46,190 bases of DNA from NCBI GenBank assembly GCA_024404975.1, contig JAKSPH010000002.1, positions 1-46,190 of the forward strand, in the 5' to 3' direction. The notes beneath the pieces were generated by a model, which worked only from the letters and a program-made list of their open reading frames with translations, did no database searches and was not told the origin of the DNA. Source of the DNA: Clostridia bacterium (GTDB lineage Bacteria; Bacillota; Clostridia; Oscillospirales; CAG-272). The translations under genes were made by a program, and so were the position numbers. Positions 10,958 through 43,090 of this stretch are shown piece by piece. Each line of letters begins with the position of its first letter. Positions within the stretch are counted from its first letter, which is position 1.

Positions 10958-11126
10958 TAACGTTTCTTTGGGGCATGGTGAGATTCCATACCGGCAGTAT
11001 AGTCTGCGAGAGCGGGAGATCCGCTTTGATAAGGTGCAATTCCTTAACCGACGGTGATAGTCCGGATGAGAAAAGAAACCGCGAATTTGCATTTCACGGC
11101 GCCCTTTTTGGGTGCCGTTTTTTATT
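10958..11126 (+). promoter_or_regulatory. FMN riboswitch (RFN element) with intrinsic terminator expression platform
   Basis: The conserved RFN blocks are GGGGCATGGTGAGATTCCATACCGGCAGTATAGTCTGCGAG and AAGGTGCAATTCCTTAACCGACGGTGATAGTCCGGATGAGAAAAGAAAC. P1 pairs CGTTTCTTT with AAAAGAAAC. A hairpin ACGGCGCCC/GGGTGCCGT plus a T-run (about 11094-11126) follows. Confidence 0.9.
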
Positions 11127-30508: not shown

Positions 30509-31108
30509 TTAAGTTTCGTCGGATCTGTCGAATCCGTAGGTGTAGCGCCATTTGCGGATGGCATCCAGGTCGTCTTCCCCGACCTTTTTCTTTTTGAGCA
30601 GTGTTTTGAAGATCTCGGAAAAATCGAGTTCTCCTTCCTCGGTGAGGGAACGGATGGCGGCGCTGACGTCCGCTTTGCGATACCCCTTCACACACAGGTC
30701 GCGCAGGATACGGTGCGGACCGTGGAGTTTCCCCTTCGCCTCCCGTAAAACCGCGTCCGCGACTTGGCGTTGTTCGTTGAGATAGCCGAGAGAAACCGCC
30801 TCTTTCGTGACCTGCGCCGCCACTTCGCGGGAGAAGCCGGCGCGCAGAAGCTTGTCCGTCAGTTGCTTTTCGCTGTTGTCGGCATATGCGAGAATGTTGA
30901 GCGCCTTTTTCATCGCGAAATACCGCTCGGATTCCGCTTTCAGCACGGAAAGTTGCTCCTCGTTCAGGACTTCGCCCCGTACGGGTGCGCCGATGCTCTC
31001 AAACACGCCCTCGGACACCGCAAACCGTCGGGTTTCCCCGCCGTCAAGCACAGTCAGAGCGAGATACTCCTTCGTTGACGCGGGTTTGATGTAGACAAGT
31101 TTGCCCAT
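30509..31108 (-). CDS. recX: RecA regulator RecX
   Basis: 199 aa lying directly downstream of recA. It has a repeated three-helix pattern (ALNILAYADNSEKQLTDKLLRAGFSREVAAQV...). Confidence 0.8.
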   Translation of the reverse strand: MGKLVYIKPASTKEYLALTVLDGGETRRFAVSEGVFESIGAPVRGEVLNEEQLSVLKAESERYFAMKKALNILAYADNSEKQLTDKLLRAGFSREVAAQVTKEAVSLGYLNEQRQVADAVLREAKGKLHGPHRILRDLCVKGYRKADVSAAIRSLTEEGELDFSEIFKTLLKKKKVGEDDLDAIRKWRYTYGFDRSDET

Positions 31109-31185: not shown

Positions 31186-31198
31186 TTTATTGGTTGAC

Positions 31199-32305
31199 TC
31201 AGATCTCGGTGTCGTCCGCGGCGTCGAAATCTTTGATCTCGAAATCGTCGTCCTCGCCGAGAGCCTCGTCGGCATCGGGATTCTTGCTCATTCTGTCACG
31301 GACAACGGCTTCAAGCGTTGCGAGAAGTTCTTTGTCGGACTCAATGAGTTTTCTGACGTTCTCCTTGCCCTGACCGAGGCGGGTGCCGTCGTAGTAGAAC
31401 CACGCACCGCTCTTTTCGATGATGCCCATGGTGAGCGCAAGATCAATGATCTCGGTGGATTTGGAAATACCCGAACCGTAGAGAATATCGAATTCCGCGG
31501 TACGGAAGGGAGGAGCGACTTTGTTCTTTACGACCTTGCACTTGGTGCGGGAACCGTAGACTTCATCGCCGTTTTTGAGCGACTCGCTGCGGCGCACGTC
31601 GATACGCACGGAAGCATAGAACTTGAGCGCACGGCCGCCGGTGGTGACTTCGGGGTTGCCGTACATAACGCCGACTTTTTCACGAAGCTGGTTCGTGAAG
31701 ATGACGATCGCGTTGGATTTTGCGATCGCGCCGGAGAGTTTTCTCATTGCCTGGGACATCAGACGCGCCTGAACGCCGACGTGGGACGCACCCATATCGC
31801 CTTCGATCTCCTGTCGGGGAACGAGAGCCGCTACGGAGTCGATGACGATGATGTCGATCGCACCGGAATTGACGAGTGTTTCCGCGATCTCAAGTGCCTG
31901 TTCACCGCAGTCGGGCTGGGACACGAGAAGGTTGTTGATATCTACACCGAGGTGTTTTGCGTAAACGGGATCGAGCGCGTGTTCCGCGTCGATGAACGCC
32001 GCCTCACCGCCCTGTCTTTGAACTTCCGCGATAACGTGGAGGGCGATGGTGGTTTTACCGGAAGATTCCGGACCGTAGATCTCGGTGATTCTTCCTTTCG
32101 GAATACCGCCGATACCGAGGGCAAAGTCAAGACTCAGCGAACCGGTCGAAACGGCGGATACGTTCATATTGGCATTTTCGCCCAAACGCATGATAGAGCC
32201 TTTTCCGCATTCACGTTCAATACGTGCCATCACGGATTCGACTGCCGCTTTTTTCTCATTTTCCTGCGGCTTCGTTTCGGTTGCCGCGCTTTTTTTTGCT
32301 GCCAT
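31199..32305 (-). CDS. recA: recombinase RecA
   Basis: 368 aa with Walker [10 protein letters not shown], the motif [10 protein letters not shown] and an acidic C-terminal tail. The SD is AAAAGGAGA. Confidence 0.98.
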
Positions 32306-32401
32306 AGTGGATCTCCTTTTTGTTGTTTGATGGTGCTATTATACCGAAAGGTCTGTACGATAAATCGGACAGTTATGCACTTGTGGGAAGTTTTCGGAAA
32401 A

Positions 32402-33682
32402 TTATTCTCCGAAGAGCATGGTGGCGCCGACGGGCCGGATACGGAGGTTCATTGCCGCGCCTTCACCGAACACACTGTCCATCGCTTTGCAGTACTCATC
32501 CGCGTACTCGTTCTTTACGAACACTTGGATCGTACCCGCGAAACCGCCGCCGTGAACACGGCAGGCACCGCCTTTTCCTGCGAGGAGGGTTTCCGTCAGA
32601 CAGAGCGCCAGAGACAGTCCCTGTTCTTTCGGATTGAGCGTCGTGTAGACGTTCTGCAAATACTTAAAGGAAGAGTTTCCGGAATCCGTGATGCCGCGGA
32701 AGAAGCCGTCGACGTCGCTGGTCTTGAGCGCGGAACGGATCACGCCTACCCTGTTATTTTCTCTTACAAAGTGGAAGGCGCGGAGGAGGGCACGGTCGTT
32801 GACTTCGGCACGGATCTTACCGGCGTTGTCGATCAGATCCTTTTCGGTCACACCGCGGAGAACTTCTTTGCCGAGGACGGCGGCGACTGCCTTCATCTCT
32901 GCGGGAACGGAAGCATAGTCCGCGTTGAGGTTCGCGTGGTTGCCGCCCGTGTTGACGATGCAGAGGGAATAGCCGGCGTTGGTGAGGGAGAAGTCGATCG
33001 GCTCAACGATCGGGTTCTTGGGATCGGCAAAGTCGATGTAGACGAATCCGCCGACGGCACACGCCATCTGATCCATCAGACCGCAGGGCTTTCCGAAGAA
33101 CTCGTTTTCAGAGAATTGGGCGAGCTTCGCGATCTCGATCGCACTGACTTTACCGTCATTGTAGAAGTGATTGAGGATGTTTCCGATCATCACTTCAAAG
33201 GCGGCGGAAGAGGAGATACCGCTTCCCTTGAGGACTTCGGTGGTGGAGTACGCGTCGTAACCTCCGATGGAATAACCTTCTTTTTCAAATCCGCGGGCAA
33301 GACCTGCGACAAGCGCGCGGGAGGTGAACTTGCGGAAGTTGTTCGGAGAGTCGATGCGGGACAGGTCCACGGTGTCTTCGGGATAACCCTTGGAATGGAA
33401 ACGGATCACCCCGTCCTCGTTTCTTGCGGCGACGGCGATGATGTCACGGTCGATGGCTCCTGCGAGAACGCAGCCGTGGTTGTGGTCGGTGTGGTTGCCG
33501 CTGATCTCGCTTCTGCCGGGGACGGAGAAAACGGCGATATCACGGTCCTCACCGTACATTTCGGTGAAGCAGTCAATGGCTTCGATCATACGGGCGGTCT
33601 GACGTTCTACGTCGGCGTAGAGGTTGGCGTAGGCGTTCAGGACGCCGTTTTGCAGTTGTTCTTTGAGTTCTGCGGGTTTCAT
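32402..33682 (-). CDS. galactokinase-family GHMP sugar kinase
   Basis: The start at 33682 (MKPAELKEQL) follows AAGGGGA. The motifs are PGRSEISGNHTDHNHG (galactokinase-like motif I) and the GHMP motif GSGISSSAAFEV. Confidence 0.82.
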   Translation of the reverse strand: MKPAELKEQLQNGVLNAYANLYADVERQTARMIEAIDCFTEMYGEDRDIAVFSVPGRSEISGNHTDHNHGCVLAGAIDRDIIAVAARNEDGVIRFHSKGYPEDTVDLSRIDSPNNFRKFTSRALVAGLARGFEKEGYSIGGYDAYSTTEVLKGSGISSSAAFEVMIGNILNHFYNDGKVSAIEIAKLAQFSENEFFGKPCGLMDQMACAVGGFVYIDFADPKNPIVEPIDFSLTNAGYSLCIVNTGGNHANLNADYASVPAEMKAVAAVLGKEVLRGVTEKDLIDNAGKIRAEVNDRALLRAFHFVRENNRVGVIRSALKTSDVDGFFRGITDSGNSSFKYLQNVYTTLNPKEQGLSLALCLTETLLAGKGGACRVHGGGFAGTIQVFVKNEYADEYCKAMDSVFGEGAAMNLRIRPVGATMLFGE

Positions 33683-33686
33683 ATTG

Positions 33687-34652
33687 TTATTCCCCTTGTA
33701 AAGAATTATTTGCAAATATGTTGATACATTCCGAAACGAGATCGGAGAAAGGACGCATCATTCCGTCGGGGGTGTCTACCGTCAGCCGTACGGCATCCGG
33801 CTCTTTGCGAAACCACGTCAGTTGCCGTTTCGCGTAACGGCGGGAAGACTGTTTGAGCTGTTCCACGGCTTCACCGACGGTCGTTTCCCCGCGGATCGCG
33901 CCGAGGAGTTCTTTATATCCGATGGCTTGCGCCGCCGTGGACTTTTGCGACAGATAACCGAGATCGTACAGGCGTTCGACCTCTGCTAAAAGACCGCAAT
34001 CCATCATTTCGTCCACGCGCCGGTCGATCCTCGAATAGAGCAGATCGCGGTTTGAAAAGTCCAGGGTGACCATCTTCACGCGGATGCCGTCGCGCGGCTT
34101 CTTCGTCGCTTCGTCGAACACGCTTTTCGGAATTCCGGTCGTTTCGTAGATCTCAAGCGCGCGCAGAACGCGGCGCACGTTGTTCCTGTGGGTGGAGAGG
34201 GCGCTTTGCGGGTCGACCGCTAATAGCATCCGGTAGAGTTCCTCACGTCCCTCTTTGGTCAGGGTGAGTGCTTGGTATTTTTCCTTGAAAGCGGGATCGC
34301 TTTTCGGCACGTCCTCGCTTTCGGCGCGGATGAGAGAGTCGATGTAAAGTCCCGTTCCACCGACGAACAGAGGCGTTTTTCCTCGTTCGGAGATGCCTTT
34401 TGCCGCGGCGAGAGCGTCCGAAACGTAGTCCATCGCGCTATACGGTGTTCCGGGATCGAGAAAGTCAATGAGGCAGTGCGGAACCTCAGCCCGTTCTTCG
34501 GGAGTGGGTTTCGCGGTTCCGATATCCATATATCGGTAGATCTGCATGGAGTCGCAGGACACGATCTCGCAACCGAGTTCCTTTGCGACGGCGATGCCGA
34601 GGGCGGTCTTTCCGCTTGCGGTCGGACCGGTAATGGCGTAAGCGTTGATCAT
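33687..34652 (-). CDS. miaA: tRNA dimethylallyltransferase
   Basis: MINAYAITGPTASGKTALGIAVAKELGCEIVSCDSMQIYRYMDIGTAKPT gives the P-loop and the DSMQ(I/V)Y motif. The gene overlaps the upstream gene by 4 nt. Confidence 0.95.
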   Translation of the reverse strand: MINAYAITGPTASGKTALGIAVAKELGCEIVSCDSMQIYRYMDIGTAKPTPEERAEVPHCLIDFLDPGTPYSAMDYVSDALAAAKGISERGKTPLFVGGTGLYIDSLIRAESEDVPKSDPAFKEKYQALTLTKEGREELYRMLLAVDPQSALSTHRNNVRRVLRALEIYETTGIPKSVFDEATKKPRDGIRVKMVTLDFSNRDLLYSRIDRRVDEMMDCGLLAEVERLYDLGYLSQKSTAAQAIGYKELLGAIRGETTVGEAVEQLKQSSRRYAKRQLTWFRKEPDAVRLTVDTPDGMMRPFSDLVSECINIFANNSLQGE

Positions 34653-35581
34653 TGTGTGATCCGATCTACGAATTCTGTAAGATCCGTAAAGAATTCTTCA
34701 CGGCAGGTATCGTTGTGAATTTCGTGCCGGGCGCCGGAATAGAGTTTCATGCGGACGTCGGCACAACCGTGAAGGAGGAGATTTTTGTATACTTGTTCCA
34801 CCCCTTTGCCGTAGTTTCCGACGGGATCTTCCTGACCTGCGGCGAGGAAGGTCGGCAGGTTTTCGGGGTAGGAATCAAACCACGCACGGCTGTTGCATCT
34901 GCCGAGGGCATCGAACAGATCGCCGTAACCGGCGGCGGTGAAGGTGAAGTTTGCGAGAGGATCCTTGTCTTTCGCTTCCACGACGGTGCGGTCAGTGGAG
35001 ATCCACGCGCCGGCACCTTCGTCTTTTGCGCAACGTTTATTGTACGAGCCGAACACCAATTTGGTGAGCAATGCGGGACGTCGGCGCTCTCCGCGAAGGG
35101 TGCGGGTAATGCCGACCAGTGCCTTTGCCAACCAGAGTACGGAAGGCGCACTGCCGGTTCCGACAATGGCGACACCGCACACGTCCGCGGGATATTTTTC
35201 CACGAACAGACGCGCGAGGAAGGAACCCATACTGTGTCCCATCAGAACGACGGGAACGTCGGGATAGCGGGATTTGAGGAGCAGATTCATGGAATGGAGA
35301 TCACGGAGGATAAAGTCCACGCCGTTCGACGAAGCGATGAAACCGAGTTCATCCGCGTTCGCCGCGGTCGTTCCGTGACCGAGGTGATTGTTTCCGGCAA
35401 CGAGGATTCCCTGTGCCGTGAGGGCTTCGGCAAGACCTTCATACCGTTCGATATGTTCGACCATGCCGTGAGAAATCTGAAGGATAGCGCGGGGCGGTTC
35501 TGCGGGGACGTACAATTTACCCGTTACGGTGTGGATGAGATCCGACGAAGGGTAGGAAATTTCTGACACTGTATAACTCAT
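34649..35581 (-). CDS. alpha/beta hydrolase (lysophospholipase/monoacylglycerol lipase-like)
   Basis: 310 aa with the nucleophile elbow GHSMGS and the HG oxyanion motif (ISHGMVEH). Confidence 0.82.
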   Translation of the reverse strand: MSYTVSEISYPSSDLIHTVTGKLYVPAEPPRAILQISHGMVEHIERYEGLAEALTAQGILVAGNNHLGHGTTAANADELGFIASSNGVDFILRDLHSMNLLLKSRYPDVPVVLMGHSMGSFLARLFVEKYPADVCGVAIVGTGSAPSVLWLAKALVGITRTLRGERRRPALLTKLVFGSYNKRCAKDEGAGAWISTDRTVVEAKDKDPLANFTFTAAGYGDLFDALGRCNSRAWFDSYPENLPTFLAAGQEDPVGNYGKGVEQVYKNLLLHGCADVRMKLYSGARHEIHNDTCREEFFTDLTEFVDRITQ

Positions 35582-35614: not shown

Positions 35615-36550
35615 TCAGCGGTTGCGGGAGAGAAATTCGTACACTTCCGGCGTGGTGGGGTAGACCGCGTGTGTCGCGCCTTTGGCGGCAAAGACCGCCA
35701 TCGCGGATTCGGCGAGCATCGCCGAGCCTTTCACGTCACCGCCCGTCAGATAACCGAGCAGGAGAGAGGCGTTATATACGTCGGTGAGATCCCGTGCCGC
35801 TCCGCAAAGTTTGCCGTTGCCGACGGGGGGAACCATGCCGTAGTGTTTGCCGTCGTAGAAGAAAGTTCCGCGGCGGTCAAGACGGATGACGAGGTATTTC
35901 GTGTGGATCTGACGGTAAACGGCGAGAGCCGCGCGAAGGCAGGAATCGGTACCTGCGGGGCGGGTTCCGCACATCTTTTCCGCCGTGACGTCGTCAATGA
36001 CGAAGAATTCCGACTGCGGGAGAGTGCCGACCGGAGAATCGCCGATCCCGTCCGTCGGGCAGACGGCGAAGGGAATTCCTTTTGCCGAAGCGATCTTCGC
36101 GGCGGCAGAGGTAACGGCGGCGGGGAGAGTAAGATCGAGAACGAGCATTTCGGGATTCAGCCCGAATGCTTCCTGAATGTTTTCCACGGTGAGATTCTCA
36201 TTCGCACCGGGGTAGATGACGCGGCGTTCCGCGCCGTCGCCTTCCTTGATGGTCACGCAAAGTCCGGTAGGAAATTCGTGATCCACCTTGACGGCGCAGG
36301 TGTCGATTCCGAGTTCACGGTAGTTTTCATACATACTCTGACCGTGGGCATCCGCGCCGAGTTTGGTGCAGAGCATCGCATCCGCGCCGAGTTTTGAGAG
36401 CGCGACCGCAAGTCCCGTAGCACCGCCCGACGGAAGGTAGGCGACACCGCCGTCATCCGTTACGGTCTGACCGGGTTCGGGAAGTTGAAACATATTGAGA
36501 GAGAGTTCCATCACGGAACTGCCGATCATTAAAATCTTTCGTTTATCCAT
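35615..36550 (-). CDS. PfkB/ribokinase-family carbohydrate kinase-like protein
   Basis: 311 aa with the overall PfkB pattern (MIGSSVMELSL..., GGATGLAVALSKLGA). The C-terminal DTxGAGD motif is not recognisable. The SD is AAGAAGG. Confidence 0.7.
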   Translation of the reverse strand: MDKRKILMIGSSVMELSLNMFQLPEPGQTVTDDGGVAYLPSGGATGLAVALSKLGADAMLCTKLGADAHGQSMYENYRELGIDTCAVKVDHEFPTGLCVTIKEGDGAERRVIYPGANENLTVENIQEAFGLNPEMLVLDLTLPAAVTSAAAKIASAKGIPFAVCPTDGIGDSPVGTLPQSEFFVIDDVTAEKMCGTRPAGTDSCLRAALAVYRQIHTKYLVIRLDRRGTFFYDGKHYGMVPPVGNGKLCGAARDLTDVYNASLLLGYLTGGDVKGSAMLAESAMAVFAAKGATHAVYPTTPEVYEFLSRNR

Positions 36551-36576
36551 TGTGAAACCTTCTTGAAATCGTGAGA

Positions 36577-38898
36577 TCAGTTCCAGTCGCTATCGACGGA
36601 GAGTTTGAAAATTCCCGCATTGGAGTCGAACTCGGTGGCGAGGGCAGATTCTCTTGCGCGGCAGGTGAAGATGAAACTCTGATGTCCTTCGCTCGACAGG
36701 TGGCAGATCGCCTTCATCATTGCGGTCGAACGGGTGTTGTCCTGATGCGCGAAACTCTCGTCGAAGGTGACAGGAGGAAGTTCCGTATAAAGCATATCGA
36801 TGAGCGCCATACGGACGGCAATGTAAGTAAGATCCTGCGTACCGCCGGAGAGGAAGTCCACGGACTTCTTTTCTCCCGCCTGGTTGGCGAAGGTGACGTG
36901 CAGACTTCCGGTCACTTCAAAGCCGGAGTACTTCTTGTCGGTCATGACTTCCATCAGCTTGGTGGCGTAAGTGCCGAGACGGGGCGAGATCTCACTGCGC
37001 AGGGCTTCCTGTGCGGATTCGATGGTGCGGTAAGCGAGATAGTATGCCTTGTGGCGAAGTTTGAGCGCGTCGATCTTGTCGTCGAGCGCACGCATCTTGG
37101 AATAGGACTCGCCGGGATCGCGCACGTCCGTTTTGAGGGAAGAGAGTTCGTTTTCCACTTCGAAGGCAAGACGCTCGTTCGCGGCGATCTCGTCCTTGCA
37201 ATCGGCGATACCCGTGATGATTCCATCGTGATTGATCTCGGAGAGCGCCTTTCTCTTGAGGGGAGAAACCTGCGCACGGATCTCGATCTCGCTCTTGTCG
37301 GAGAGGGTTCTGCGGACCTCTTTCACAGTGAGTTCGACCATATTCTTCTCGTCGAGAAGTTCGTGCTTCTTGTCAAGGAAGACGGTGACACGGTCTTCCA
37401 ACTCGTCAAGGAAGCGGTTGAATTCGTTTTCGGGGATCTCGTCGCCCCAACGGACGGCAACTTCGTAGAGGTGTGCCTGTGCGGCTTCGTAACCGGCTTT
37501 CGCGTCGGAGAGGGCGGCAGAGGAATTCTCCACGTCGCGGATGAGTCCGTCGCGTTTGCTTCTCGCTTCGGCGATGAGGTCGAGTTTTTTCAGAAGGTCG
37601 TCATATCCCTGTACGGAGAACTGCTCGCAGGCGGCGCTGATCTTGCGTTTTCCGAACACGGTAACGAACAGAGCGGCGAGGGCAAGGACGGCGAACAGAC
37701 CGATGCCGACAAACCCGAGGACTTTGAGCAGGGGCGTGATCTCCTTCATCGCAAACTCGAATACGGCGGAACCGACGGCGAGAAGTCCTGCGAGGATTGC
37801 GATGACGGTGCCGATCACGGTTCTCTTTTTCAGCGAAACGGCGTTCCGGCGAACTTGTTCTTCACCGCCGAAGCCGTCGGCTTTCTGAATGTTGTTCTCG
37901 ATCTCCGCGGTGATACCGACGGCGTTTTTACGCGTGGTATAGAGATCGGAAGCATCGGTCAGAGCGCGGTACGCATCGTCGGCATCGCGTCTTGCTTTTC
38001 TGATTTCTTTCAGGAAATCGTCATCGGGAACGAAACCGTTCTTCTTGTTGGATTCGAGGTATTCGTTAAAGACTTCGTTCTTGTTTTCGGCTTCTTTCTC
38101 CAACTCGTGAAGTTTGTCAAACGTCTGAATGAGCATCACGTTCTTGTAACAAGCGTCGAGTTCAAGCAGCTTGTCCCGCTTTTCCTCGGCTTCCGCGCGT
38201 TTTTCGCGGATCTCGTGGAGCTCCGCTTCTTTCGACAGAATACGGCGGTTGTCCTCGGAGGACTTTTCGAGTTTTGCTTCGAGTTCTTCCTGTTTCTTCA
38301 TCAGGTCGATGATGGCGCCGCCTCCGCCGGAACGGTGGTAGAGCGTTTCCATTTTTTCGTCGATCTTGGAAAGTGCCTTGGCACTGTTGATCTTCTCACT
38401 TCCGGAGAAGAGAATATTCTCAATGGCGGTTTTTACGGAGCCCTCTTCGATTCTCGCATCGGCGAGAGAACCGATGAACGCGGTGTTTTCGAACAGTGCC
38501 TTCTCCACGCCGAAGAACACTTCACCGGCAGGGGACTTTCCGAAAGCGGGCGCGCCCGTTTCCAAATCAATGATGGAGGAATCCTCCTTGTATGCCGTGC
38601 GGGAGGAAACGTCGCTCATCACGGTGGAACGGTTGATGAGATACCGCTTCTTTCCGACTCTGACGGTCATGGAACCCTGTGCCGTGCCGTTGTTCCAGTT
38701 GATGCGTTTTCTGCGTTCGGAGAGGGAGTCCGCGGTATCGTCCGCGTCAAAGCCGTAGAGCATATACTTGATGAATGCGGCAATGGTACTCTTTCCGGCT
38801 TCGTTCTGCCCCTCGATGACGTTGACGGTGTCGGAGAACTCCATCGTCATATCGGTGAGCATACCGAAACTCTTGATCACAATCTTTTCGATAATCAT
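36577..38898 (-). CDS. Rad50/SbcC/YhaN-like ABC ATPase with a central predicted transmembrane hairpin
   Basis: 773 aa. The motifs are Walker A GQNEAGKST (aa 30-38), signature LSGGTQD and Walker B/D-loop VTFDESFAHQD near the C-terminus. Long charged coiled-coil-like arms flank two hydrophobic ~22-aa segments at aa ~360-416. Confidence 0.85.
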   Translation of the reverse strand: MIIEKIVIKSFGMLTDMTMEFSDTVNVIEGQNEAGKSTIAAFIKYMLYGFDADDTADSLSERRKRINWNNGTAQGSMTVRVGKKRYLINRSTVMSDVSSRTAYKEDSSIIDLETGAPAFGKSPAGEVFFGVEKALFENTAFIGSLADARIEEGSVKTAIENILFSGSEKINSAKALSKIDEKMETLYHRSGGGGAIIDLMKKQEELEAKLEKSSEDNRRILSKEAELHEIREKRAEAEEKRDKLLELDACYKNVMLIQTFDKLHELEKEAENKNEVFNEYLESNKKNGFVPDDDFLKEIRKARRDADDAYRALTDASDLYTTRKNAVGITAEIENNIQKADGFGGEEQVRRNAVSLKKRTVIGTVIAILAGLLAVGSAVFEFAMKEITPLLKVLGFVGIGLFAVLALAALFVTVFGKRKISAACEQFSVQGYDDLLKKLDLIAEARSKRDGLIRDVENSSAALSDAKAGYEAAQAHLYEVAVRWGDEIPENEFNRFLDELEDRVTVFLDKKHELLDEKNMVELTVKEVRRTLSDKSEIEIRAQVSPLKRKALSEINHDGIITGIADCKDEIAANERLAFEVENELSSLKTDVRDPGESYSKMRALDDKIDALKLRHKAYYLAYRTIESAQEALRSEISPRLGTYATKLMEVMTDKKYSGFEVTGSLHVTFANQAGEKKSVDFLSGGTQDLTYIAVRMALIDMLYTELPPVTFDESFAHQDNTRSTAMMKAICHLSSEGHQSFIFTCRARESALATEFDSNAGIFKLSVDSDWN

Positions 38899-38942
38899 AG
38901 GATGATCCTTTCTCTTGGTTGATAGGATGGAACCTTATACAG

Positions 38943-39653
38943 TCAGTTGATTTCGCCCGTGTCGCCGGAGAGAAATCTGATGGCGCGTTCGACGGAATCT
39001 TTGGAGTTGTACCACGGTTCGGCTTCAAACTGATAGTCAAACTTTTTACAGAACCACGACACGTCACCCGAAAGCGTTTTGAGATACTCGTTTTCGATTC
39101 CGGATGCCACGGCATAGAATTCGCGGAAGATCTTCTTGTTCATTTTACGCTTGCCGTAATCCGCCATCGCACGGTAGTGAGGGAGGCAGAAGAAGGGTTG
39201 CGCTTTGAACTTCTCCCTGAAATCGAGATCGGTTTCAAAGAGGTAGACCGCCGTCGCGATCATCGCCGCGAGGTTCTTGTCGATGCGTGAGCAGACGTAG
39301 CAACTCTTTTCGAGCGCGGACAGTGCGTCGATCTCGGATTGCCCGACACCGAGGACAAGGTCCTTCGCCGTGGGGGAGAGTTTCTTCTTCACCGCGTCAA
39401 GATGGCTTTCAAGCATCAGTCCCATACCGAGCCGGCGCTTGCGTCCGAGCATCTTGCGGTAGTGCGTCAGGCAGAAGCCCATCTCGTTGGTCTTGATGCG
39501 GATATCGGGTTCCATCATCGAGGCACCGAGAATGATGTCGAGTTCGTCCTCTTCGAGTTTGCGGAATAGAGCGCAGAACGGACAGCCGAGGGCGGGATCG
39601 CTCCGAGAGCCGTCAAACGCCTCGTTTACGGGTATTGTGTAAATCTGTTCCAA
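38943..39653 (-). CDS. Cys/His-rich protein with an internally duplicated CxxC...CxxH module (possibly a DUF6062-like family)
   Basis: 236 aa with a TTG start 6 nt after GAGGA. The candidate ligands are C24/C27/C61/H64 and C118/C121/C156/H159, with FCLTHY and FCLPHY in equivalent positions. The gene is 44 nt upstream of the ATPase gene. Confidence 0.7.
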   Translation of the reverse strand: MEQIYTIPVNEAFDGSRSDPALGCPFCALFRKLEEDELDIILGASMMEPDIRIKTNEMGFCLTHYRKMLGRKRRLGMGLMLESHLDAVKKKLSPTAKDLVLGVGQSEIDALSALEKSCYVCSRIDKNLAAMIATAVYLFETDLDFREKFKAQPFFCLPHYRAMADYGKRKMNKKIFREFYAVASGIENEYLKTLSGDVSWFCKKFDYQFEAEPWYNSKDSVERAIRFLSGDTGEIN

Positions 39654-39688
39654 TTCATATCCTCGCGCATATAATTATAGATACTAAT

Positions 39689-39717
39689 ATTATACAATAT
39701 ATTTTCAAATTTTTCAA
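39689..39717 (-). promoter_or_regulatory. extended -10 promoter for the Cys-protein/ATPase operon
   Basis: Minus strand reads TTGAAA-17 nt-TGTATAAT. Confidence 0.6.
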
Positions 39718-40033
39718 GGGGATTTTCAAGTTTTTTCGGCGGGGCGGGAAAAGGAAAAATACTTGCGGGAAAGCACAGCGTTTTCCTCTCCGACCGACCG
39801 CACGTATCGCCTTCTTCGCTCTCTCCCGACGGTTCCGAAACGCCGCTTTCACCCGCGGGAAACCGCCGCCTGCGATGCCGTCCTCCGTCATTCAAAACCG
39901 TTTCGGATTCCTCTGCCTTTGTCTCTCAAAACCGCCGAAAAACGAGCCGTCTTTTTCTCCGGCGAAGAGGCACATATGACCTGAATTTTCTCGTTTTTCT
40001 TGCCGAAATACGGAAAAATGAAAATAAAACTAT

Positions 40034-40070
40034 ACAAAAATCCCCGTTTTCGCTGGGAAAACGGGGATTT
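40034..40070 (-). terminator. rho-independent terminator after infB
   Basis: TCCCCGTTTTC-loop-GAAAACGGGGA followed by TTTTTGT on the minus strand. Confidence 0.8.
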
Positions 40071-40126: not shown

Positions 40127-43090
40127 TTACGCCTTGACTTCCTCCATGATGAACGCTTCCATGATATCGTTTTCTTTGATGTCGTTGAACTTTTCAAGTC
40201 CGACACCGCACTCATATCCTTCGGCAACTTCCTTCACATCGTCCTTGAAACGGCGGAGTGATGCGATCTTGTCTTCGAAGATAACGATACCGTCGCGCAC
40301 GATACGGATCTGCGCGTTTCTCGTGATCTTACCGTCGGTAACATAAGAACCTGCGATCGTACCGACACTGGGTACGCGGATGGTCTGACGGACGGTGGCG
40401 TGACCGAGGAGCGCTTCCTTGAAGGTGGGAGCAAGCAGACCCTTCATAGCCGCTTCGATCTCGTCGATGATCTCATAAATGATTCTGTGGGTACGGATAT
40501 CGACCTTGTTTCTTTCCGCACTGTCGAGCGCGTTCTTATCGGGACGGACGTTGAATCCGACGATGATCGCGTTGGACGCGGCGGCAAGCATAACGTCAGA
40601 TTCGATGATACCGCCGACCGCGGAATGGATGACGTTGACTTTGACTTCCTCGGTGGAGAGTTTGAGCAAGGATGCCTTGACGGCTTCCGCAGAACCTGCC
40701 ACGTCGGCTTTGACGATGATATTGAGCGTCTGTACGCCTTCGGAGATCTGGCTGAACAGGTCGTCGAGGTTGACTCTCGCGTTTGCGGCGAGAATGTCCG
40801 CACGCTGCTGAGCGCGGCGCTGTTCCGCGAGATCCTTCGCCATCTTTTCATCCTCAACACCGTTGAGTTCGTCGCCTGCCTGAGGCACGTCGTCAAGACC
40901 CGTGATCTCTACGGGAACGGAAGGACCTGCGACCTTGATGGATCTGCCCTTGTCGTCCTTCATATTGCGGACACGTCCGACGGCATTGCCGACGATCACG
41001 TAGTCGCCCTGATGAAGGGTACCGTTCTGAACGAGGATAGTAGCCACGGGACCGCAACCCTTATCCAGGCGGGATTCGATGACGATACCTTTGGCACGTC
41101 TGTTCGGGTTCGCACGGAGTTCTTTGACTTCGGCGACGAGCAGGACGCTTTCGAGAAGTTCCTGAATACCCATACCCGTGATCGCGGAGCAGGGAACGCA
41201 GATGACGTCACCGCCCCATGCTTCGGGAACGAGTTCGTACTGAGTGAGTTGGTTCAAAACGTTGTCGGGGTTGGCAGTGGGTTTATCCATCTTGTTGATG
41301 GCAACGATGATGTCAACGCCTGCGGCTTTCGCGTGGTTGATCGCCTCGATGGTCTGAGGCATGATACCGTCGTCGGCTGCGACAACGAGAATTGCAATAT
41401 CGGTGGATTTCGCACCGCGCATACGCATGGCGGTGAAGGCTTCGTGACCGGGGGTGTCAAGGAAGGTAACGTCCTTGCCGTTTACCTTGACGCGGTAAGC
41501 ACCGCTCGCCTGCGTGATACCGCCGGCTTCGCCCTTGGTAACGTTCGTGTGACGGATCGCGTCGAGGATGGAGGTCTTACCGTGGTCAACGTGTCCCATA
41601 ACGCAGACAACGGGTGCGCGTTCAATGAGATCAGCTTCGTTTTCCTCGGCTTCGGTGAACAGTTTTTCTTCGATGGTAACGACGACTTCTTTGGTGACCT
41701 TTACGCCGAATTCGGTGGCGATGAGTTCCGCGGTATCGTAGTCGATCACGTCGTTCACGCCCTTCATCTCGCCCATCATCATGAGTTTCTTGATGACTTC
41801 GGCAGAGGTTTTCTTCATGCGGGAAGCGAGTTCACTGAGCGTGATCTCGTCGGGAACTTCGATCTCCAACTGTTTCTTTCTCGCGAGTTCCGCTTCCATC
41901 TTCTTGATCTTCTCGGCGGCGGCTCTCTGCTTATCCTTCGCGCTCTTGGCGTTCTGATTCTTGTTGTCCTGCTTCTTGAGTTTCTGCTTGGAAGCCGCGG
42001 TATCGCCGTTTGCGATGGCGTAGAACTGATCGTTGTAGTGGTCGTCGTACTTGGAAAGGTTGACGTCGGAAGTTCTCATATCGACAACGCGTGTCTTGGG
42101 CGCGGTCGCCTGATAATCACCGGCATCCAGATTGACACCGCCCTTGGCGTTGGTGTTGACGGTCGGGGTGATGGTCTTATACTGCTGCTTCTGAACTTTC
42201 TTTTCTTCCTTCTTGGGTGCCGCCTTAGGCTCAGCCTGTGCCGCCTTAGCCGCCTCCTGCGCTCTTGCGATGCGCTGCTGCTTTTCAAGCAACGCCTGCT
42301 GTGCGGGACGGGTGGGGTTGGGGTCGGGCTTGGGTGCCGCGTTCGGATTTCTCATACCGGACGCCTGACGGTTCATATTGTCATATTTCTTTGCGAACGG
42401 ATTTGCCTGAGGCGCGGCAGAGTACTTGTTGTAACCGTTCTGCTGACCGTTCTGACCGCCGAAGGAGCGGCGATCTCCGCCCTGCTGATTGAATCCGTTT
42501 CTGCGGTCACCGTACTGACCGTTCTGTCCGTTAAACGGGCGACGTTCGCCGTTCTGTCCGTTAAAGGGACGGCGCTCCCCGTTCTGCTGACCGTTCTGAC
42601 TGCCGAAGGGACGGCGATCTCCGCCTTGCTGGCCGTTGTTGAAGGAACGGCGCTCGTTGTTGTTCTGACCGTTTACTCCCGCGGGGCGGTTCTGCGGTCT
42701 TTGTTCCTGCGCGGCGGGTCTTTGCGCTTCGGCTTTGACTTCCGGCTTGACTTCGGGTATCGCTTCCGCTTTCACTTCGGGCTTGGGAGCCTGGGCTTTG
42801 GGCGCGGGGTTGACCTCTGCCTTCGGTGCGTCGGTTTGGGGTGAGTCTTCCTTCGGTTCGTCGATCACGCTGATCTTCGCTTTTCCGTCAATGTAGTCGT
42901 CCAAGTTCTTGATCTGGTGGGAGAGTGTGATCTTTTGGAGGAAGAGTTCGACTTCATCGGGATCCGCGGAAGTCTTTTTCTCCATTCCCATATCTTTGAA
43001 TGTGTCCTGAACTTCCTTGGACTTCATGTTGAAATCTTTGGAAAGTTGGGCGATTGCGATCTTATTTGTTTTTGTTGCCATCCTGCTCAC
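40127..43090 (-). CDS. infB: translation initiation factor IF-2
   Basis: 987 aa with G-domain motifs [17 protein letters not shown] and NKMD. The N-terminal region is low-complexity Gln/Gly/Arg/Pro-rich. The start is either GTG 43090 or ATG 43081. Confidence 0.96.
42435..42631 (-). repeat. nested in-frame tandem repeats in the infB N-terminal region
   Basis: 30-nt units start at 42519, 42549 and 42579 (ccgttctg.ccgttaaa.gg.cg.cg.tc.cc). A ~53-nt near-identical block also occurs at 42435 and 42579. These encode [10 protein letters not shown]-type decapeptides. Confidence 0.85.

Follow-up and report, generated by a model that had tools for sequence, protein, structure and literature searches.

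The DNA analyzed here, called the window throughout, is a stretch of 46,190 nucleotides (nt) from a Clostridia bacterium (Oscillospirales, CAG-272; assembly GCA_024404975.1, contig JAKSPH010000002.1, positions 1 to 46,190). Its minus strand encodes a predicted Rad50-like ATP-binding cassette (ABC) ATPase of the YhaN/SbcE type (36577..38898; 773 aa, ATG start) and, 44 nt upstream of it, a small protein of the Pfam family DUF6062 (38943..39653; 236 aa, TTG start with a GAGGA ribosome-binding site). Rad50/SbcC-type ATPases are regarded as obligate partners of Mre11-family nucleases. In the clade to which the window belongs, DUF6062 holds the position of the nuclease gene, and no gene of the Metallophos family is found nearby. 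An earlier note on this DNA, drawn up from the sequence letters, had suggested that the two genes may be a membrane-associated module in which a zinc protein stands in for the nuclease.

The ATPase and the apex of its arm

The ATPase carries the two halves of a split ABC head at opposite ends of the protein. The Walker A P-loop GQNEAGKST lies at aa 30-38 (38785..38811, minus strand), and the ABC signature LSGGTQD (aa 683-689) and the Walker B/D-loop FDESFAHQD, in which Walker B FDESF spans aa 712-716, lie within aa 683-716 (36751..36852, minus strand). The motif G..NE.GKST is kept in ATPases of all partner classes. The protein has five cysteines and no CxxC, in agreement with the split head and hook-less arm described in the earlier note, and CxxC is likewise missing from 119 of 120 close homologs and sporadic in distant ones. 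A change at the H-loop was considered as a marker of partner exchange and rejected, as this position varies family-wide as Q, T, H or R.

Profile searches matched aa 1-60 to AAA_27, the head of YhaN-type proteins (PF13514; E = 9.3e-12, 45.4 bits against a cut-off of 22), with further Pfam matches to AAA_23 and, over aa 322-763, to SMC_N. Sequence matches in the PDB were to Rad50 heads only; the best NCBIfam Rad50 model scored 44 bits against a cut-off of 1000, and SbcC_Walker_B 20 bits against a cut-off of 27. In the AlphaFold2 (AF2) model (predicted local distance difference test, pLDDT, 80), the half-heads fold together into a split head with long helical arms, and the antiparallel arm between them includes an N-side helix of ~150 aa, from which a length of ~20 nm was calculated. 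The top Foldseek match of the model was full-length Rad50 (7zr1, E = 2e-16), followed by MukB, Smc5/6 and LmuB. Homology searches recovered 560 representatives at E<1e-30, and for ~140 of them, with lengths of 720-800 aa, the alignment spans the whole protein at 27-38% identity; two homologs (P0025 and P0400) bear the Joint Genome Institute (JGI) label "uncharacterized protein YhaN". Given the Pfam matches, the Rad50 matches in the PDB and Foldseek searches, and these YhaN names, we place the protein with high confidence among the Rad50/SbcC-like ABC ATPases of the YhaN/SbcE kind, which form a large family in Firmicutes.

Two hydrophobic helices at the arm apex (37651..37818, minus strand; aa 361-382 and 389-416, with a short loop) are predicted to form a membrane hairpin. 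The segments comprise 19-26 uncharged residues each and are flanked by KKR and KRK. Their Kyte-Doolittle 19-residue mean is at most 2.66, a value reached in 8 of 2000 composition shuffles, and their summed Hessa-scale energies are -2.6 and -0.7 kcal/mol, compared with +9.1 for the next-best stretch. AF2 places a helix at 346-383, a 5-residue loop and a second helix at 389-426. Two central transmembrane-like segments were found in 130 of 139 family representatives, at a median relative position of 0.50, and nuclease-linked ATPases have them too. The hairpin that the earlier note had proposed for the apex is supported, but it is no special trait of the window ATPase. Across 129 representatives the flanks hold 4.2 and 3.5 lysines plus arginines per 12 aa over a background of 1.6, and the loop is charge-poor with a median of 9 aa. 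The residues of the apex are unconserved in sequence, and hydrophobicity alone is kept. Basic flanks, a short loop and hydrophobicity without sequence conservation are what marks a hairpin that is embedded in lipid and has its two ends in the cytoplasm, and the apex of the ATPase very probably is such a hairpin, inserted into the cytoplasmic membrane.

Two relatives of ~930 aa (L147 and L154), each with a Metallophos gene upstream, have an amphipathic basic segment at the arm center and no hydrophobic hairpin. The hairpin thus characterizes the large Firmicutes-type family, but AAA_27 proteins do not all have it. The hydrophobic apex itself is not new, having been known since 2009: B. subtilis SbcE/YhaN lacks CxxC, and its conserved central domain is insoluble, with a hydrophobic first half (Krishnamurthy et al. 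2009, PMC2811018). The same paper does not term this domain transmembrane, and reports that SbcE localizes to the pole of competent cells (PMC2811018).

DUF6062 and the gene 5′ of the ATPase

The gene directly 5′ of the ATPase was surveyed at loci with full-profile ATPases, from a metagenome sample of 80 loci together with loci collected earlier. That gene encodes a Metallophos protein at 62 loci, DUF6062 at 51, and neither of these at 4, while 7 loci leave no room upstream. Three ATPases 27-33% identical to that of the window (P0426, P0334 and P0319) are directly preceded by the gene for a 378-389-aa Metallophos protein, which either overlaps the ATPase gene or ends no more than 2 nt before it; these proteins contain the full DxHxD / GD / GNHD / H / GHxH set, and their best family matches are SbcD and Mre11. 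At four other loci (P0242, P0243, P0270 and P0395; 30-37% ATPase identity), DUF6062 is directly upstream and unrelated genes lie beyond it. DUF6062 is 5′-adjacent in every ATPase of the DUF6062-linked clade that was sampled from the ATPase side, including L102, L104, L108 and L109. The two upstream genes never occur together: Metallophos was found in 0 of 59 DUF6062-ATPase pair loci, and DUF6062 in 0 of 62 Metallophos loci.

In a neighbor-joining (NJ) tree of the ATPases (L-INS-i alignment, Poisson distances, 200 bootstraps), the DUF6062-linked sequences are monophyletic (199/200) and nested among the Metallophos-linked ones. The ATPases with neither gene (L085, L094, L095 and L096) are also monophyletic (200/200) and nested among Metallophos-linked sequences; a housekeeping YqeG-like HAD phosphatase, 60-65% identical between loci, is always directly 5′ of them, and at L085 the HAD-linked ATPase precedes hpf. 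Because both clades are nested in this way, the ancestral arrangement of the family is a YhaO-like nuclease gene followed by the ATPase gene, as in B. subtilis. The suggestion that the small protein sits in the place of the nuclease thus gains support from the 62 sister loci, the well-resolved clade and the mutual exclusion of the two genes, and relatives of the pair do not carry a YhaO-type nuclease beside it. DUF6062 evolves more slowly than the ATPase to which it is linked (49-55% versus 30-37% identity).

The small protein of the window matches the DUF6062 profile (PF19538) over its full length (E = 1.4e-77, 260.9 bits against a cut-off of 27, profile positions 3-239 of 243). Its putative ligands form two Cys3His motif sets, C24, C27, C61 and H64, and C118, C121, C156 and H159. 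All eight lie exactly where the earlier note had placed them, are at least 97% conserved in 88 homologs, and are kept at 31-37% identity; C202 is unconserved, and 3 of 4 distant homologs retain H84. The AF2 model (pLDDT 84, predicted template modeling score 0.77) is all-alpha with 12 helices, and every CxxC and CxxH sits at a helix N-cap. DUF6062 is predicted to be a soluble all-alpha protein with two putative metal sites, either zinc or iron-sulfur. For the internal duplication proposed earlier, support is moderate. Helices follow in the same order in both halves, and each half has its CxxC and its CxxH at a helix N-cap. When the halves were aligned as profiles, 23 columns about the FCxxHY motif matched with a probability of 83% (E = 9e-6), although a plain pairwise alignment of the halves was weak (z 4.4).

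The DUF6062 model had no significant fold match, the best Foldseek hits having E = 1.4 in the PDB and E = 0.46 in a viral library, and nothing meaningful was returned by PDB sequence and profile searches or by PHROGs, NCBIfam and PADLOC. A literature search found no description of the family; the Monoglobus homolog is named "DUF6062 family protein" in RefSeq. An origin of DUF6062 as a decayed YhaO nuclease was ruled out (hhalign probability 0.1%).

DUF6062 is present in at least 585 species-representative genomes. Among its best 80 genome loci the ATPase is directly downstream in 49 and not in 31, and 26 of the latter have at least 2.4 kb of downstream sequence. The lone loci L049-L080 have surroundings of their own: a divergent OGG-like DNA glycosylase gene is upstream in 18 of 28, and the gene for the tRNA methyltransferase MnmM is directly downstream in 13-15, followed by a VanY-like carboxypeptidase gene. 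The miaA gene near paired loci is, like MnmM near lone ones, a tRNA-modification gene. In Monoglobus pectinilyticus (NZ_OY725736.1, 375882-376619; L174), a cultured organism, the gene for a lone DUF6062 of 37% identity has mntP and the thymidine phosphorylase gene as its neighbors on either side, on a non-mobilizable replicon of 518 kb. Three contigs labeled "UNVERIFIED: Bacteriophage sp." (MT835846.1, MT837267.1 and MT838795.1; L175-L177) encode DUF6062 amid leuCD-like genes, leucyl-tRNA synthetase, a LysR regulator and ABC-F, and look like misassigned fragments of bacterial chromosomes. An NJ tree of DUF6062 suggests that the lone state is derived, with poor bootstraps (8/200 for monophyly of the lone sequences and 28/200 for the deep split); the distant homologs, which are lone, if anything point against this.

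Operon layout and genomic surroundings

The DUF6062 gene is the first of a predicted operon. A sigma-70-type promoter, TTGAAA-17-TATAAT, is predicted at 39689..39717 (minus strand) and agrees with 11 of 12 consensus positions; a TG abuts its -10 hexamer, which differs from the canonical extended -10, TGnTATAAT. The upstream operon boundary is an intrinsic terminator of infB at 40036..40069 (minus strand), with a 13-bp stem and a U-run, whose fold has an energy of -22.7 kcal/mol (z -6.8 relative to shuffles). No minus-strand terminator-like site was found from 39653 to 34488 in a consensus scan, which leaves the infB terminator unlisted as well. These results agree with the promoter of its own that the earlier note had assigned to the small gene and with its view that no terminator separates the pair from the genes that follow.

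Those genes, all on the minus strand, encode a pfkB-family sugar or nucleoside kinase (35615..36550; ribokinase-family models match below their cut-offs), an alpha/beta hydrolase (34649-35581; Hydrolase_4 is the Pfam family in syntenic loci), MiaA (33687-34652; IPPT in syntenic loci) and, in the late part of a conserved block, a galK-like kinase (32402-33715), RecA (31199-32305; TIGR02012, E = 6e-164, above cut-off) and RecX (30509-31108; recX models match at 1e-13), with which the block ends. In paired lineages the order after the ATPase is pfkB, usually an alpha/beta hydrolase gene, miaA, often galK, and recA-recX. A PfkB gene follows the ATPase in L001-L048, L082, L083, L084 and L092, and the last three share the order galK-recA-recX. 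In L082, 4-nt overlaps extend to pfkB and miaA; gene overlap was rejected as a sign of specific coupling between DUF6062 and the ATPase, since 4-nt overlaps at these loci involve pfkB and miaA too. Two contigs of the metagenome-assembled genome RGIG8971 (L001 and L003) each contain the whole DUF6062-ATPase-pfkB-hydrolase-miaA-galK block, with 66-67% DUF6062 identity to the window, and this doubling could reflect a duplication or a mixed bin.

As the earlier note had it, no nuclease gene is close by: the phosphoesterase motif set DxH...GD...GNH[DE], a pattern that fits the real YhaO-like partners of sister loci, is absent from all open reading frames (ORFs) of the window, and neither the window nor any DUF6062 locus gave a profile match to a phosphoesterase. 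The placement of the pair in a conserved housekeeping block between infB and recA likewise bears out the view that it belongs to the core chromosome and is not mobile. As to SOS regulation, LexA-type boxes (GAACN4GTTC) occur at chance frequency, and neither the operon promoter nor recA has one.

The ~380 nt that separate the infB terminator from the start of the DUF6062 gene (39654-40035) are AT-rich beside the promoter; this interval has no Rfam match, and its ORFs are only short and implausible. The infB gene (40127-43090, minus strand) encodes a 987-aa initiation factor 2 with a long N-terminal low-complexity region (Q, G, N, R, P) that holds repeated "GQNG..RRPF" units. Antisense ORFs at 36571-38922 (plus strand, 783 aa) and 31190-33724 (plus strand, 844 aa), opposite the ATPase gene and galK-recA respectively, have no homologs to support them and are shadow ORFs of the minus-strand genes. 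A flavin mononucleotide riboswitch (RF00050) at 10960-11081 on the plus strand (103 bits against a gathering score of 66) is unrelated to the DUF6062-ATPase finding.

A possible partnership and known systems

The explanation that best joins these results combines the ATPase class, the membrane hairpin and the recruitment of DUF6062 as a partner, and as a whole we give it about an even chance of being correct. The hairpin would tether an ATP-gated, DNA-binding head to the cytoplasmic membrane, and DUF6062 would have been recruited as the working partner of the ATPase in the place of the nuclease. Co-translated from the same operon, it would bind the head or the base of the arm, as Mre11, SbcD and YhaO do, and would supply a DNA-processing or DNA-sensing activity at the membrane. 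Double-strand-break repair and the handling of incoming DNA are candidate roles, a role in DNA being proposed because of family homology, the B. subtilis SbcE data (PMC2811018) and the recA-recX neighborhood.

For the functional partnership of DUF6062 and the ATPase in replacement of the nuclease, taken by itself, we judge the chance to be slightly under even. The partnership is favored because DUF6062 is kept by the whole clade, excludes the nuclease gene and is more conserved than the ATPase. A more specific version appears unlikely: DUF6062 would be a so far unrecognized metal-cluster subunit with a novel all-alpha fold and two zinc or iron-sulfur sites, and it would physically take the place of the Mre11/SbcD/YhaO nuclease in a membrane-anchored Rad50-like complex of gut Clostridia. 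In lineages without an adjacent ATPase it would act by itself or together with other partners.

Adjacency may also have arisen without partnership, the ATPase having lost its adjacent nuclease or using an unlinked one, and DUF6062 being an independent metalloprotein with a job in, for example, redox, nucleotide or tRNA-related metabolism. We regard this as a credible alternative, if a somewhat doubtful one, and several observations speak for it and weigh against a partnership. Of 94 DUF6062 loci, 35 are lone. They comprise 31 of the 90 close loci, where no ATPase is encoded within 5-10 kb, and all four distant homologs (31-37% identity), which are those of Monoglobus pectinilyticus and the three phage-labeled contigs. 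The contexts of lone genes are varied (OGG-like/MnmM; mntP/thymidine phosphorylase; leuCD). Paired and lone proteins have no sequence signature that sets them apart beyond two discriminating positions, and the eight ligands are kept in both, which implies a DUF6062 function independent of ATPase adjacency. No recognizable nuclease or DNA-binding fold was found in DUF6062 by structure and profile searches. The downstream pfkB-miaA block is conserved as deeply as the pair itself, and since pfkB and miaA also share the gene overlaps, neither overlap nor deep synteny is specific to the two genes. The clade linked to the HAD phosphatase, in turn, demonstrates that the gene preceding an ATPase of this family can be one of no apparent relation to it, with the nuclease gene missing; together with the co-conserved block, it means that adjacency alone is no proof of partnership. 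A further point against the best explanation, separate from the question of synteny, is that at aa 144 (38467-38469), in the Q-loop, the window ATPase has Ser where 54 of 60 close homologs have the catalytic Gln, which may indicate altered ATP hydrolysis or a tolerated variant. Against mere synteny stands the observation that every ATPase of the clade keeps DUF6062 5′ down to 30% identity while the genes farther upstream change. Sister lineages keep an obligate nuclease subunit at that very position, the two genes never co-occur, and gene pairs that stay adjacent over such depth are usually functionally linked. The pair is kept throughout the DUF6062-linked clade, but the lone genes show that it is not the strict two-gene module of the earlier note, and the whole block is co-conserved with it.

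Two further readings concern the apex and the biological setting. The hydrophobic apex could be a buried cytosolic dimerization hinge, in which two arms meet as a four-helix bundle and which serves as the zinc hook does in Rad50. This would fit the 2009 SbcE paper, which reports a hydrophobic, insoluble domain and does not call it transmembrane (PMC2811018), as well as the unconserved apex residues and the amphipathic basic segment of the ~930-aa relatives. It is nevertheless improbable in view of two 19-26-residue uncharged segments with negative summed insertion energy, of K/R-rich outer flanks and a short charge-poor loop that make a classical positive-inside hairpin in 129 representatives, and of hydrophobicity kept without sequence conservation, which is typical of lipid-facing helices. 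That the genes form an anti-phage or anti-plasmid module with an ATPase resembling structural maintenance of chromosomes (SMC) proteins, akin to Lamassu, Gabija, Wadjet or PARIS, and with DUF6062 as effector, we consider very improbable. The head domain does give weak PADLOC matches to LmuB (4e-13), mad3 and GajA, and LmuB is among the many SMC-like Foldseek matches, but these PADLOC matches reflect generic ABC-head similarity and DUF6062 has none. The locus lies in a deeply conserved housekeeping block from infB to recA rather than a variable island, its GC content is unremarkable, and neither gene was found on a predicted-mobilizable plasmid or a verified phage: the only replicons matched in plasmid collections, of 518 kb and 861 kb, are non-mobilizable, and the contigs labeled "Bacteriophage sp." have a bacterial look.

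What is new here is the comparative result; the ATPase class and its hydrophobic apex were known, and DUF6062 was cataloged and unstudied. A literature search, beyond whose reach lay the ABC-ATPase classification of Krishnan et al. 2020, found no earlier description of family-wide hairpin counts, of near-universal YhaO adjacency or of the clade-specific replacement by DUF6062. The YhaN/SbcE branch is barely studied, a single functional paper being found in the searchable literature. Its members have a predicted membrane anchor family-wide and a YhaO nuclease gene nearly always adjacent, and one large clade of abundant gut and rumen Clostridia has swapped that neighbor for an uncharacterized putative metalloprotein. 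This provides a testable handle on two questions, the role of a membrane-tethered Rad50-like machine and the role of DUF6062, and experiments on the family could start from the lone DUF6062 of Monoglobus. A functional swap would amount to a natural experiment on how SMC-like ATPases exchange effectors outside defense systems, and if the subunit is truly replaced, a core-genome Rad50-type machine would have a non-Mre11 catalytic or sensing partner. If the swap is not functional, the result is a clean operon annotation and a caution against reading partnership from adjacency.

Among characterized systems, B. subtilis SbcE(YhaN)-SbcF(YhaO) is similar in its chromosomal location, in its SMC/Rad50-like ATPase with an AAA_27 head, COG4717 being the name JGI gives to homologs, and in a partner gene that directly precedes the ATPase gene; the sister lineages of the window ATPase have exactly its YhaO-like plus ATPase arrangement. 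It also shares long heptad arms, the lack of a CxxC hook and a hydrophobic central domain, and it acts in DNA repair and competence (PMC2811018). Unlike in B. subtilis, the YhaO/SbcF gene is absent from the window and from 59 of 59 paired loci, where DUF6062 is found instead, and the downstream genes are pfkB, miaA and recA rather than yhaM. The window ATPase is also shorter, with 773 aa compared with ~963 aa for B. subtilis YhaN.

With Rad50-Mre11 and SbcC-SbcD the ATPase has in common the split ABC head with Walker A, signature and Walker B, and the antiparallel coiled-coil arm. Its best sequence and structure matches are to Rad50, and the partner encoded at sister loci matches SbcD/Mre11 models. 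It differs from them in lacking the CxxC zinc hook, in its predicted membrane-hairpin apex, in scoring 44 bits against an equivalog cut-off of 1000, and in having no Mre11/SbcD-type gene at its locus. Compared with Lamassu LmuB, Gabija GajA and Septu PtuA, similarity is restricted to the generic head, none of their effector domains is present, and the locus is in the core genome; the Lamassu, Gabija and Septu ATPases are not known to have a membrane hairpin. The defense ATPases nonetheless share the order of an ABC head followed by coiled-coil, and their association with non-Mre11 effectors indicates that Rad50-like ATPases can work with other partners.

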